DNA from: Escherichia coli | Lineage (GTDB): Bacteria; Pseudomonadota; Gammaproteobacteria; Enterobacterales; Enterobacteriaceae | DNA length: 1,427 nucleotides | NCBI RefSeq assembly: GCF_003334335.1 | Contig: NZ_QOWQ01000107.1 | Reading direction: 5' to 3' (one strand) | Shown: piece by piece, positions 1-1,427 of the stretch | How the letters are laid out: every line of letters begins with the position of its first letter | Numbering within the stretch: position 1 is the first letter of the stretch | Translations under genes and position numbers: made by a program | The notes under the pieces: generated by a model | Seen by the model: the letters and a program-made list of their open reading frames with translations, nothing else | The model's database searches: none | What the model was told of the DNA's origin: nothing

Positions 1-131
1 TCTGCGCGAGTGTGCGGGGATAATCAAAAACGATACACACCGGGGTTTACCGCGTTAACGGAGCGTGGCGTTGTCCCCTCATGGTCGCTCGTCCGGTGCG
101 ATGGTGGAAGAAACTGGATTTTGTTGCAACT

Positions 132-144
132 GATAATCATTATC
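132..144. repeat. Perfect 6-bp-arm palindrome GATAAT-C-ATTATC just upstream of cosQ
   Basis: Seen in sequence: gataatcattatc reads as an inverted repeat around a central C. I recall the same motif at the equivalent place near the lambda right end. Its function is unknown to me. Confidence 0.4.
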
Positions 145-152
145 ATTTTCTC

Positions 153-159
153 GGGTCCT
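153..159 (+). other. cosQ-like element (GGGTCCT), needed in lambda to terminate packaging at the downstream cos
   Basis: Seen in sequence: GGGTCCT lies exactly 30 nt upstream of the predicted top-strand nick (182/183). Established knowledge (from memory): this is the same heptamer and spacing as lambda cosQ. Confidence 0.6.
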
Positions 160-182
160 TTCCGGCGATCCGGGCCGTTACG

Positions 183-194
183 GGGCGGCGACCT
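183..194 (+). other. cosN cohesive-end sequence GGGCGGCGACCT; predicted nicks between 182/183 (top strand) and 194/195 (bottom strand), giving 12-nt 5' overhangs
   Basis: Seen in sequence: exact 12-mer GGGCGGCGACCT, preceded by CCGTTACG and followed by CGCGG. Established knowledge: this is the lambda cohesive end, with the flanks as I recall them for the lambda right and left termini. Confidence 0.85.
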
Positions 195-231
195 CGCGGA
201 TTTTCACTATTTATGAAAATTTTCCGGGATC

Positions 232-243
232 CATGTCCGGTTT
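232..243 (-). repeat. R3-like putative small-subunit binding element (AAACCGGACATG on the minus strand)
   Basis: Seen in sequence: catgtccggttt is the exact reverse complement of the 12-mer at 319-330. It sits at offset 50-61 from the left end, close to lambda R3 as I recall it. Confidence 0.5.
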
Positions 244-252
244 CTCTGCAAG

Positions 253-285
253 TTAACCATATGAAAAATATAAAAACATGCTTTC
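253..285. promoter_or_regulatory. AT-rich, A-tract-containing spacer; candidate IHF-binding/bending site analogous to lambda I1
   Basis: Seen in sequence: ttaaccatatgaaaaatataaaaacatgctttc lies between the first and second repeat copies. The minus strand reads CATGTTTTTATATTTTTCAT, reminiscent of the lambda I1 segment as I recall it. I could not find a clean match to the IHF consensus WATCAANNNNTTR. Confidence 0.3.
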
Positions 286-288
286 CAT

Positions 289-300
289 GAACCGGACATG
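289..300 (+). repeat. R2-like putative small-subunit binding element (GAACCGGACATG, 11/12 match)
   Basis: Seen in sequence: the 11-mer AACCGGACATG (290-300) is identical to 320-330. Offset from the left end is 107-118. Confidence 0.5.
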
Positions 301-318
301 CGCAAAAAATAGACACTA

Positions 319-330
319 AAACCGGACATG
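319..330 (+). repeat. R1-like putative small-subunit binding element (AAACCGGACATG), with an adjacent partial inverted copy (ACCGGTTTTG, 331-340)
   Basis: Seen in sequence: aaaccggacatg, immediately followed by accggttttg, so AAAACCGG (318-325) and CCGGTTTT (332-339) form an 8-bp inverted repeat around ACATGA. Confidence 0.5.
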
Positions 331-368
331 ACCGGTTTTGTTGTGATTGTGAGGTGAGAGTTTTTGCG

Positions 369-377
369 AGGTGAGGA
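369..377 (+). promoter_or_regulatory. Shine-Dalgarno region for the small terminase gene (GAGGTGAGGA)
   Basis: Seen in sequence: purine-rich GAGG at 369-372, 5 nt upstream of the GTG at 378. An in-frame TGA at 372-374 closes the frame upstream, so GTG 378 is the first possible start. Confidence 0.55.
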
Positions 378-887
378 GTGGCTACGCAGACTGAAGTTGC
401 CAGGCATTTAAGTCTGACCGATCGCCAGCTTCGCAGATTGCAGAAATTGCCGGGTGCCCCGATATCGAATAAGCGAGGGCAACTGGATCTGGATGCCTGG
501 CGCGATTTTTACATATCGTATCTGAGAAGAAGTAAAAACGATGTGCCTGATGGCGATAGCGAAGACGACTATGAGGAGAAATTGCTTATTGCCAGATGGG
601 AACTGACAGCAGAACAGGCTGTTACACAGCAGTTAAAAAATGAGGTGTCAAAAGGAAAACTTATTGACACCGGGTTCTGTATTTTTGCCCTCAGCAAGCT
701 GGCAATGGCGTTATCCAGTACGCTTGATTCCATCCCTTTATCCATGCAGCGACAGTTTCCTGATTTAACACCGCGCCATCTTGACCATCTGAAAACCCTT
801 ATTGCGAAGGGGGCAAATCAGTGTGCGCGGGCGGGGGATAAATTACCGGATTTACTCGATGAATATATCAGAGCAACAACTGAATAA
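378..887 (+). CDS. nu1: Terminase small subunit (lambda Nu1 family), 169 aa, GTG start; N-terminal winged-HTH DNA-binding domain divergent from lambda, C-terminal large-subunit-interaction region conserved
   Basis: Complete ORF in the supplied track. Its C-terminal half (GFCIFALSKLAMALSSTLDSIPLSMQRQFPDLTPRHLDHLK...LPDLLDEYI) aligns by eye to lambda Nu1 as I recall it (AFCTFVLSRIAGEIASILDGLPLSVQRRFPELENRHVDFLK...IPGLLSEYI). It lies directly after cos and overlaps the gpA-like gene as in lambda. The N-terminus (EVARHLSLTDRQLRRL) fits an HTH pattern but differs in sequence from lambda. Confidence 0.9.
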   Translation: MATQTEVARHLSLTDRQLRRLQKLPGAPISNKRGQLDLDAWRDFYISYLRRSKNDVPDGDSEDDYEEKLLIARWELTAEQAVTQQLKNEVSKGKLIDTGFCIFALSKLAMALSSTLDSIPLSMQRQFPDLTPRHLDHLKTLIAKGANQCARAGDKLPDLLDEYIRATTE

Positions 888-1427
888 TATGATGAGTGCT
901 GTCACAACAGCATTACAGCCCCTGATAAGGGCATTGCCGGTGACGCCAGTTGAATGGGCTGATCAAAATTATTATCTGCCTAAAGAATCTTCATATGGTG
1001 AGGGAGAATGGAAAACGCTGCCGTTCCAGATCGCCATCATGAACAGCATGGGGAATGATCAGATCCGGACTGTTAATCTGATTAAATCTGCCCGTGTTGG
1101 CTATACAAAGATGTTGCTAGGAGTCGCCGGGTATTTTATTGAGCATAAATCCCGAAACAGTCTGCTTTTTCAGCCCACGGATTCTGCCGCTGAAGATTTT
1201 ATGAAGTCTCACGTGGAGGCGACGATTCGGGACGTGCCATGCCTGAAAGATCTTTCCCCGTGGCTGGGACGTAAACATCGTGACAATACTCTCACGCTGA
1301 AACGCTTTTCATCGGGGGTGGGCTTCTGGTGCCTGGGTGGTGCGGCAGCAAAAAACTACCGTGAAAAATCCGTGGACGTGGTCTGCTATGACGAACTTTC
1401 CTCGTTCGAGCCGGATGTCGAAAAAGA
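859..1427 (+). CDS. A: Terminase large subunit (lambda gpA family), N-terminal 189 codons; 3' end lies beyond the window
   Basis: My translation from ATG 859 (frame +2 relative to the small subunit gene) gives MNISEQQLNNMMSAVTTALQPLIRALPVTPVEWADQNYYLPKESSYGEGEWKTLPFQIAIMNSMGNDQIRTVNLIKSARVGYTKMLLGV..., open to the window end. This matches lambda gpA as I recall it (MNISNSQ...VEWADANYYLPKESAYQEGRWETLPFQRAIMNAMGSDYIREVNVVKSARVGYSKMLLGV), including Y46, K76 and K84 of the KSARVGY(S/T)K ATP-binding segment (nt 1084-1110). The ORF is absent from the supplied track, presumably because it has no stop codon in the window. Confidence 0.92.
   Translation, partial: MNISEQQLNNMMSAVTTALQPLIRALPVTPVEWADQNYYLPKESSYGEGEWKTLPFQIAIMNSMGNDQIRTVNLIKSARVGYTKMLLGVAGYFIEHKSRNSLLFQPTDSAAEDFMKSHVEATIRDVPCLKDLSPWLGRKHRDNTLTLKRFSSGVGFWCLGGAAAKNYREKSVDVVCYDELSSFEPDVEK

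Follow-up and report, generated by a model that had tools for sequence, protein, structure and literature searches.

A probable lambda-type cosB with variant R-boxes and a divergent small-terminase domain: a candidate packaging-specificity class in Escherichia coli

Introduction

We analysed a 1,427-nucleotide stretch of Escherichia coli DNA (assembly GCF_003334335.1, contig NZ_QOWQ01000107.1), hereafter the window, which contains a lambda-type cos (cohesive-end) region followed by the genes for the small (TerS) and large (TerL) terminase subunits. Our subject is a 12-bp motif, AAACCGGACATG (CATGTCCGGTTT on the other strand), that recurs between the cohesive end and the TerS gene, where an earlier reading of the sequence (the original prediction) had placed a cosB with its own repeat family. 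Among lambda-like phages, only the packaging specificities seen in lambda, 21 and N15 are documented (PMC4669245). We find that window positions 232–330 are very probably the cosB subsite of a lambda-type cos, paired with a divergent TerS DNA-binding domain. The cosB-TerS pair follows the well-known lambda plan and appears not to have been described before; a search of the open-access literature turned up neither a description of this cosB/TerS class nor any paper on the PhiR12 phages, which carry it.

Results

The window contains a lambda-type cos region and terminase genes

The cosN cohesive end (GGGCGGCGACCT, 183–194, plus strand) is identical to the left end in both lambda and 21; window position 183 is bp 1 of this left end, and bp numbering runs from there. 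To its left on the same strand, a cosQ-region box (CGGGTCCTTTCC, 152–163, bp −31 to −20) is the same as a box annotated in the phage 21 record M81255 as "R4 (R box) recognition for terminal cos cleavage", and the cosQ element GGGTCCTT(T)C is kept in all relatives, Pseudomonas and Azospirillum included. The repeats therefore have directly beside them what a lambda-type cosB should have, a 12-nt 5′-extended cosN with cosQ to its left. TerS is encoded at 378–887 on the plus strand (169 amino acids, GTG start, Shine-Dalgarno sequence GAGGTGAGGAG at 367–377). The 5′ part of the TerL gene (859–1427, plus strand) overlaps the TerS gene by 29 nt; its translation, MNISEQQLNN...VEWADQNYYLPKES..., stays open up to the window end, and relatives have a called GpA_ATPase/GpA_nuclease gene at an equal offset.

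Compared with lambda, the window has only 2 differing positions over bp 1–45 and diverges from about bp 46, where similarity to phage 21 likewise stops; from 941 on, the window and phage 21 gene 2 are 81.6% identical in DNA sequence. Since similarity extends to about bp 46 and is found again from 941, the divergent block consists of cosB plus the TerS gene.

Four copies of the motif flank an IHF-like site

The motif occurs four times, in two exact copies and two with one mismatch. Copy 1 (CATGTCCGGTTT, 232–243, bp 50–61) is exact and lies on the plus strand, with AAACCGGACATG on the minus strand. Copy 2 (289–300, bp 107–118, minus strand) has one mismatch, reads GAACCGGACATG on the plus strand and CATGTCCGGTTC on the minus strand, and is inverted relative to copy 1. 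Copy 3 (319–330, bp 137–148, minus strand) is exact and oriented like copy 2, while copy 4 (CATGACCGGTTT, 327–338, bp 145–156, plus strand; AAACCGGTCATG when read in the AAACCGGACATG orientation on the minus strand) has one mismatch, is oriented like copy 1 and shares CATG with copy 3. Written in the orientation of copy 1, the four read CATGTCCGGTTT, CATGTCCGGTTC, CATGTCCGGTTT and CATGACCGGTTT. Between copies 1 and 2 is a site resembling that of integration host factor (IHF), TAACCATATGAAA (254–266, bp 72–84, plus strand). It has two mismatches to the reversed IHF consensus, YAANNNNTTGATW, as does lambda I1 (TAACTTAATGTTT, bp 74–86). Nine of the 12 lineages introduced below have an IHF-like site at bp 72/73, and two relatives, L105 and L107, have perfect consensus matches (TAACCAATTGATT) at the I1 position.

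In lambda, R3 occupies bp 50–65, TerS contacts bp 55–63 and the order is R3-I1-R2-R1 with R2 inverted (PMC9026076); the M81255 annotation places phage 21 R3 at bp 50–65, I1 at 72–86, R2 at 107–122 and R1 at 150–165. Copies 1 and 2 stand at these R3 and R2 positions and are mutually inverted as there, giving the two parts expected of a cosB, an R element within about bp 48–65 and an inverted copy about 55–60 bp on; we regard them as putative TerS sites equivalent to R3 and R2, and the IHF-like site as a putative equivalent of I1. A lambda-type R1 would lie at about bp 150–165 in the R3 orientation. The third copy is at bp 137–148 in the R2 orientation, and copy 4, which comes nearest to such an R1, is not conserved. 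R1 is non-essential in lambda (PMC4669245).

The original prediction listed three copies at 232–243 (inverted), 289–300 and 319–330, about 50, 107 and 137 bp from the cohesive end, and likened them to lambda R3, R2 and R1. These coordinates are correct and the copies start at exactly bp 50, 107 and 137, but the overlapping fourth copy and the IHF-like site at 254–266 had been missed; the likeness holds for the R3 and R2 positions and fails for R1, which the third copy matches in neither place nor orientation. A supposed difference in orientation pattern from lambda likewise comes down to the third copy, as the R3 and R2 equivalents face opposite ways, just as R3 and R2 do in lambda and 21.

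A further claim, that the motif is unrelated to the lambda R consensus, does not stand. When the R3 boxes are aligned (lambda, GCGTTTCCG-TTCTTC; 21, TCGTGTCGG-TACTTC; PhiR5_1, GCATGTCAG-TTCTTC; window, CCATGTCCGGTTTCTC; the sister clade described below as group B, CCATTTCCGGTTCC; Pseudomonas relatives, GCGTTTCCGGTTCCGG), they form one series, with cores CATGTCCGGTTTC in the window, CGTGTCGGTACTTC or CATGTCGG in phage 21, GCATGTCAGTTCTTC in PhiR5_1 and CGTTTCCGTTCTTC in lambda. The boxes of the sister clade (CATTTCCGGTTC) and of the Pseudomonas relatives are nearer than that of the window to lambda R3. By this alignment the window R-box is a variant of the lambda/21 R-box whose 5′ half is the phage 21 CATGTC. 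The window R3 core lies 3 bp nearer cosN than in lambda and 21, and motif position 4 (window 235, bp 53), which is G or T among relatives, aligns with lambda/21 bp 56, a specificity determinant (PMC4669245).

Adjoining the R3 equivalent at 219–227 (bp 37–45) is a block, TTTTCCGG, that looks like a group B R-box. Its counterpart is ATTTTCCGGTTT in lambda (bp 37–48) and TTTTTCAGG in phage 21; some lineages keep the block and others have TTTTCAG(G/A/C)G instead.

The R3 and R2 equivalents are better conserved than the spacers and cosN

A first scan of viral contigs for related loci returned only ~99% identical copies, which we used for polymorphism and not for co-variation. Diverse relatives were drawn from a genome scan and ten exact-protein look-ups. 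They form group A, seven lineages including the window with TerS proteins 60–100% identical (from E. coli, Salmonella, Citrobacter, Enterobacter and Leclercia), and group B, five lineages of a sister clade.

In a comparison of 24 distinct cosB haplotypes from viral contigs, copy 1 does not vary, copies 2 and 3 vary hardly at all in their CCGGACATG cores, and substitutions are concentrated in the spacers. Across the seven group A lineages, 10/12 columns of the R3 equivalent and 11/12 of the R2 equivalent are invariant, as compared with 0/10, 2/22 and 0/18 in the spacers, 2/12 in cosN and 0/12 in copy 3, and the positions of the two sites are fixed at bp 50/51 and 106/107 in all 12 lineages. Copy 3 is lineage-restricted: the window, L116 and L115 have it, as does L105 near bp 149, and it is absent or degenerate in L110, L114, L117, L109, L112 and L113. 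Copy 4 is probably dispensable, since L116, L115 and L067 do not preserve its CCGG core and it is missing from the terminase-less islands described below.

To the left of the repeats, an I2-like block (TATGAAAATTTTCCG, 212–226, bp 30–44, plus strand) is the counterpart of a phage 21 site annotated as IHF I2 (TATGAAAATTTTTCA); its ATGAAAATTT segment is invariant in all seven group A lineages, and the sole deviant in group B is L105 (ACGAAAATTT). The cohesive ends of eight lineages (L116, L107, L110, L117, L115, L109, L112 and L113; bp 1–12 placed by anchor) are far from GGGCGGCGACCT, those of L116 and L107, for instance, being GGTCGTAGGACG-like; the flanking CGCTATTTATGAAAATTT block is conserved.

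The repeat sequence co-varies with the predicted recognition helix of TerS

In all seven group A lineages, the TerS helix reads T(D/E)RQLRRLQK and xATGTCCGGTT stands at the R3 as well as the R2 position; in all five group B lineages, the helix reads ...R(R/W/Q)(L/F/V)R(D/N)LQK and the two positions have CA(T/C)TTCCGGTT (core CAYTTCCGG). Motif position 4 thus changes together with TerS residue 20 in 12/12 lineages (G where the residue is Arg, T where it is Asp or Asn), which suggests that residue 20 reads this position. The G-to-T change in group B is concerted at two sites 57 bp apart, and this is the stronger part of the co-variation argument. By sequence, the family divides into two sub-types, ATGTCCGG with Arg20, to which the window belongs, and AYTTCCGG (ATTTCCGG) with Asp/Asn20.

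We also picked cos sites from viral contigs independently of the protein, by the pattern ATGAAAATTT-N13-TCCGGTT with the variable base left free, which gave at least 120 loci. Among the matches listed, 97/97 loci with a recognisable downstream TerS have the window-type N-terminal domain, none has a lambda/21-type TerS downstream of a TCCGGTT-type cos, and the Arg/G and Asp/T pairing holds throughout. A scan for lambda/21-type R3 found no window-type TerS after a 21-type R3. In lambda/21-type phages, G at bp 56 always accompanies an E20/R21/S24 helix and T a Q20/N21/E24 helix; this is only the known difference between two clades, and does not tie bp 56 to any single residue. The same scan returned L242, L263 and about 30 further loci in which a lambda-type R3 is preceded by TGCC (TGCCGTTTCCGTTCTTC) and no TerS matches the lambda/21 N-terminus pattern; these may carry another TerS type or be islands.

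This domain also occurs in more distant TerS proteins, 33–45% identical, from Pseudomonas, a gammaproteobacterial metagenome-assembled genome and Azospirillum. Their cos is short, with (C)TTCCGGTTCCG(G) around bp 51–66, and their residue 20 is not Arg. Non-enteric relatives, Pseudomonas and Azospirillum among them (L090–L092, L099 and L101–L103), have a compact cos with a GGGTCC(T)T(T)C cosQ-like box, a cohesive end unlike that of the window (one example is GGGTAATTCGAG), a TerS start about 80–90 bp from the cohesive end as in N15, and a single tandem TTCCGGTTCCG(G) at the R3 position.

TerS joins a conserved core to a divergent, predicted DNA-binding domain

The whole length of the 378–887 product matches PHROG 57, "terminase small subunit" (E = 1.7e-55), and its register is that of lambda Nu1, 21 gp1 and N15 gp1. 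Pfam Phage_Nu1 (PF07471) covers only residues 49–150 (E = 1.4e-18) and misses the DNA-binding domain, and NCBIfam returned no match for the protein or for its N-terminal 66 residues. In tblastn searches against phages, lambda, 21, N15, phi80 and Gifsy-1 align only from about residue 57–73 on (46% identity to lambda over residues 73–164). Profile alignment with hhalign against lambda Nu1 gives 99.7% probability over residues 5–166 with the helices in register. It pairs window R16, Q22, G26 and P28 with lambda R17, Q23, G26 and P28 and aligns window residue 20 with lambda N21 and phage 21 R21, with a wing about 5 residues shorter in the window protein.

Residues 1–54 are predicted to form a winged helix-turn-helix (HTH) DNA-binding domain with a recognition helix at 15–22 (nt 420–443), in which Arg20 is encoded at 435–437. 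AlphaFold models contain helices at 4–10, 15–22 and 38–54, with a loop or wing after the second (pLDDT, the per-residue model confidence, ~85); DSSP does not resolve the wing strands. In Foldseek searches with whole-protein and domain models, the leading matches are all MerR-type winged HTH domains, with E-values that are not significant; the best TM-score is to the N-terminal domain of lambda TerS (6hn7_B, TMq 0.68, 2.6 Å over 59 columns). The models are thus consistent with, rather than proof of, a winged-HTH fold, and we conclude that the domain is homologous to that of Nu1, with strong divergence, or at the least analogous to it in structure.

Terminase-less islands carry the same cosB

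The array is also present where no terminase gene is. In E. coli strain 135 (NZ_CP080260.1), an ~11-kb island at tRNA-Pro (L118 1457–1660, L120 7133–17900) lacks a terminase gene and has at its end cosQ, cosN, R3, I1, R2 and copy 3, 90% identical to window 195–329. Its genes (integrase, AlpA-like regulator, replication, PerC, "major capsid" and "head decoration") fit the EcCICFT073 family of phage-inducible chromosomal islands, or PICIs (PMC6092414). Terminase-less PICI-type islands with the R3-I1-R2-copy 3 array beside cosN make up at least 14 of the at least 120 pattern-selected contigs (L122, L123, L139, L143, L145, L148, L150, L170, L175, L183, L194, L198, L222 and L225). Because such islands need a terminase in trans, the array must work in them as a cis-acting signal. 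Island homology to the window stops right after copy 3, which is retained, and this suggests that the functional unit ends at about window 330. No rpp or TerS open reading frame was found downstream of the window-type cosB in these islands, whose sequences suggest that they copy the helper cosB directly rather than redirecting the helper enzyme through Rpp.

The strain 135 island pairs its window-type cos with an inverted N15-type cos (L118 ~1760–2050). In a Nissle 1917 island (L241 ~2359–3290), an N15/Monarch-like R3 is followed by an N15-like TerS-like gene, and the second, inverted cos has phage 21-like R boxes; the TerS-like protein, a candidate for the published Rpp, has no match in the PDB. 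Two inverted cos sites of different cosB classes may widen the helper range of an island.

The domain and its site also appear to move together. In E. coli RM9131 (L119, NZ_CP028429.1, 420–1188), a chimeric TerS has an N15-type N-terminus next to an N15-type R3 (GAGTTGTTGTTT). The junction is near residue 70, and the C-terminal half beyond it is encoded by DNA 92% identical to that of the window, which implies that DNA-binding domain and cosB were exchanged as one cassette.

The window cosB-TerS block is present in 1141/5426 complete E. coli genomes (~21%, at ≥80% coverage), O157:H7 and O26:H11 included, with a median of 2 places per genome and often 2–3. Among 50,697 phage records, only five PhiR12 phages (PV340549–PV340554 series) have it.

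Other features

Just 5′ of the TerS start, a direct repeat (TTGTGAGGTGAG and TTGCGAGGTGAG, at 347–358 and 364–375) includes the Shine-Dalgarno sequence in its second copy; L110, L117 and similar relatives have a single copy. Searches of the window for Rfam RNA families and PADLOC defence systems gave no match.

Discussion

How might this cosB work? Its core is two inverted CATGTCCGGTT(T/C) copies (bp 50–61 and 107–118) around an IHF-like site (bp 72–84). By analogy with lambda, IHF would bend the DNA so that the R3 and R2 equivalents face each other, and the winged-HTH domains of a TerS dimer, each using recognition helix 15–22, would dock in the major grooves of both sites. The docked TerS would then anchor the large subunit, leading to nicking at cosN (183–194) and the start of packaging. 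Copy 3 would be an accessory site with a role comparable to that of lambda R1, oriented like R2.

Several suggestions of the original prediction gain from these data. The TerS N-terminal domain does differ from lambda's, lying outside the Pfam Nu1 model, and site and protein do appear to have diverged together, as the co-variation of residue 20 with position 4 and the protein-independent scan agree in indicating. This joint divergence makes it likely that the specificity is other than that of lambda; most likely, R-box and domain define a packaging specificity distinct from those of lambda, 21 and N15. We regard the pair as a strong candidate, on comparative grounds, for a fourth packaging-specificity class with two sub-types.

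A number of points weigh against this interpretation. We infer the binding, bending and specificity of this cosB, and indeed all function of the cosB-TerS pair, from what we observed, namely its sequence, position, conservation, co-variation and presence in trans-packaged islands. The co-variation involves essentially two clades and an outgroup, and hence one or two events; with so few independent switches, shared ancestry alone could produce it. Published genetic work on lambda links bp 56 to residue 24, and not to 21 (PMC4669245); both sub-types here have Lys opposite lambda 24, so that an Arg20-G contact would have no precedent in that work. The DNA-binding domain alone, aligned to the lambda/21 group, reaches only 19% hhalign probability and 11% identity, albeit in the same register; Foldseek E-values for it exceed 0.2; and a PDB sequence search gave no relevant match for the protein or the domain profile. 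Since 3-bp shifts of R3 are deleterious in lambda and 21 (PMC9026076), an R3 core 3 bp nearer cosN may mean a different docking geometry. Finally, the shared CATGTC may allow cross-recognition with phage 21, and asymmetric recognition has a precedent in the N15 terminase, which packages lambda DNA despite divergent recognition elements (PMC4669245).

These last points lead to the alternative that survives best, in which the architecture is the same and the specificity is not new: TerS would recognise 21-type R boxes through CATGTC, making this the phage 21 class, as the original prediction had suggested might be the case, or an asymmetric overlap with it. A single inserted base separates window CATGTCCGG from phage 21 R2/R1 CATGTCGG, R2 is at bp 107–118 in the window and 107–122 in 21, Arg occupies the aligned helix position in both proteins (window R20, 21 R21), and G at the bp 56 equivalent always accompanies the 21-type helix. 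Nonetheless, we consider this alternative unlikely: the DNA-binding domains are unrelated by BLAST, Pfam and hidden Markov model comparison, the helices differ (TDRQLRRLQK in the window, DPRTIERWQSQ in 21), the 3′ half of the box is CGGTTT as against GG(T/A/G)(A/C)C, the R3 core is displaced by 3 bp, and no mixed TerS/R-box pairs are among the matches listed in either scan.

Could the repeats instead have a role in transcription? Copies 3 and 4 together form a palindrome, AAACCGGACATGACCGGTTT (317–340), in which a 9-bp stem carries a loop of 6 nt and the tail is rich in T; it has a terminator-like score, and its RNA fold is put at −13.7 kcal/mol (z = −2.9). At least these two copies might thus be a hairpin or intrinsic terminator, or the repeats might be an operator for a regulator of the terminase genes. 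We find either reading quite improbable, and rejected the terminator because the hairpin is not conserved: its second arm is broken in L116, L115 and L067 and absent in L105 and the PICI islands, and the CCGGACAT core of copy 3 is kept where the second arm is lost. A promoter scan found no sigma-70-like site in window 1–500, so that we also rejected a promoter reading. Moreover, the conserved copies are 1 and 2, which are 57 bp apart, and a regulator would account neither for the way the sites co-vary with the TerS helix, nor for their constant distance from cosN, nor for their occurrence in islands that lack a terminase.

That the repeats are chance or neutral duplications in fast-evolving, functionless intergenic DNA is scarcely credible: at three mismatches, a threshold without power, their number is not significant (4 matches against 1.59 expected; 18/200 shuffles reach 4), whereas at no more than one mismatch there are 4 against 0.01 expected (0/200 dinucleotide-preserving shuffles reach 4), and these counts, together with a position fixed in 12 lineages and a conservation across genera above that of cosN, refute a chance origin for copies 1 and 2; copy 4 may still be fortuitous.

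Returning to a cosB with its own specificity, we propose, tentatively and with rather less confidence than in the cosB assignment itself, that three features belong together: two additional natural specificities one residue/base-pair switch apart, mimicry of cosB by PICIs, and the pairing of unlike cos sites. If this is correct, the split between Arg20/ATGTCCGG and AYTTCCGG/Asp-Asn20 falls at the position aligned to bp 56, which separates lambda from 21, a subset of EcCICFT073-type PICIs carries the full helper cosB without redirection of TerS by Rpp, and islands with different cosB cassettes on two inverted cos sites gain a broader helper range. The natural Arg/G versus Asp-Asn/T dimorphism lends itself to direct tests of a recognition code for a small terminase. 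Diverse specificities should help when several prophages share one cell (PMC4669245). A shared cosB class would predict which prophages and islands package each other's DNA, which phages mobilise PICIs, and where prophages interfere with one another in poly-lysogenic pathogens.

How does the pair compare with known systems? It follows the plan of lambda, with identical cosQ and cosN, an IHF-like site between two inverted sites, the R3 equivalent at bp 50–61 (50–65 in lambda), the TerS start at bp 196 (191 in lambda), a homologous TerS core and C-terminus and the same overlap of the TerS and TerL genes. It differs in the R-box (CATGTCCGGTTT versus lambda CGTTTCCGTTCT) and in the third site, which is 14 bp closer and oriented like R2 rather than R3. 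Neither the lambda-class box (CGTTTCC, in which bp 56 is T and bp 59 is C) nor its helix (IRTIQNWQE) is present; the window has CATGTCCGG and DRQLRRLQK.

With phage 21, it shares the CATGTC 5′ half, the R2 coordinates and nearly the same spacing of R3 and R2 centres (~57 bp, versus ~58 bp in 21). However, the box has one extra base and another 3′ half, and the domain belongs to another sequence family, whereas that of 21 gp1 is 55% identical to lambda's. The 21 class has C(G/A)TGTCGG at bp 53–60, the helix PRTIERWQS and a lambda-like domain; the window box is longer by one C and occupies bp 50–58. No DNA similarity to 21 was found across cosB or the TerS gene in a search sensitive to ~65–70% identity.

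N15 and Monarch resemble the window in that a divergent TerS domain and R3 have been exchanged together on a lambda-type cos. The elements themselves are others, since neither the N15/Monarch R3 (GAGGTTGTTGTT) nor the TerS helix ...GISVQAFDKWGV is in the window, and N15 lacks an IHF site, has only one R site and starts its TerS at bp 89 (PMC4669245).

PICIs of the EcCICFT073 family, as published, have a simple R3-only cosB and use an Rpp-TerS heterodimer (Fillol-Salom 2018, 2019; Murialdo and Feiss 2022). The islands described here are like them in being terminase-less, in having cosQ and cosN of the lambda kind and in carrying two cos sites in inverted orientation, and a subset has exactly the window cosB; they differ in that this subset carries the full phage-type array of R3, I1, R2 and copy 3.

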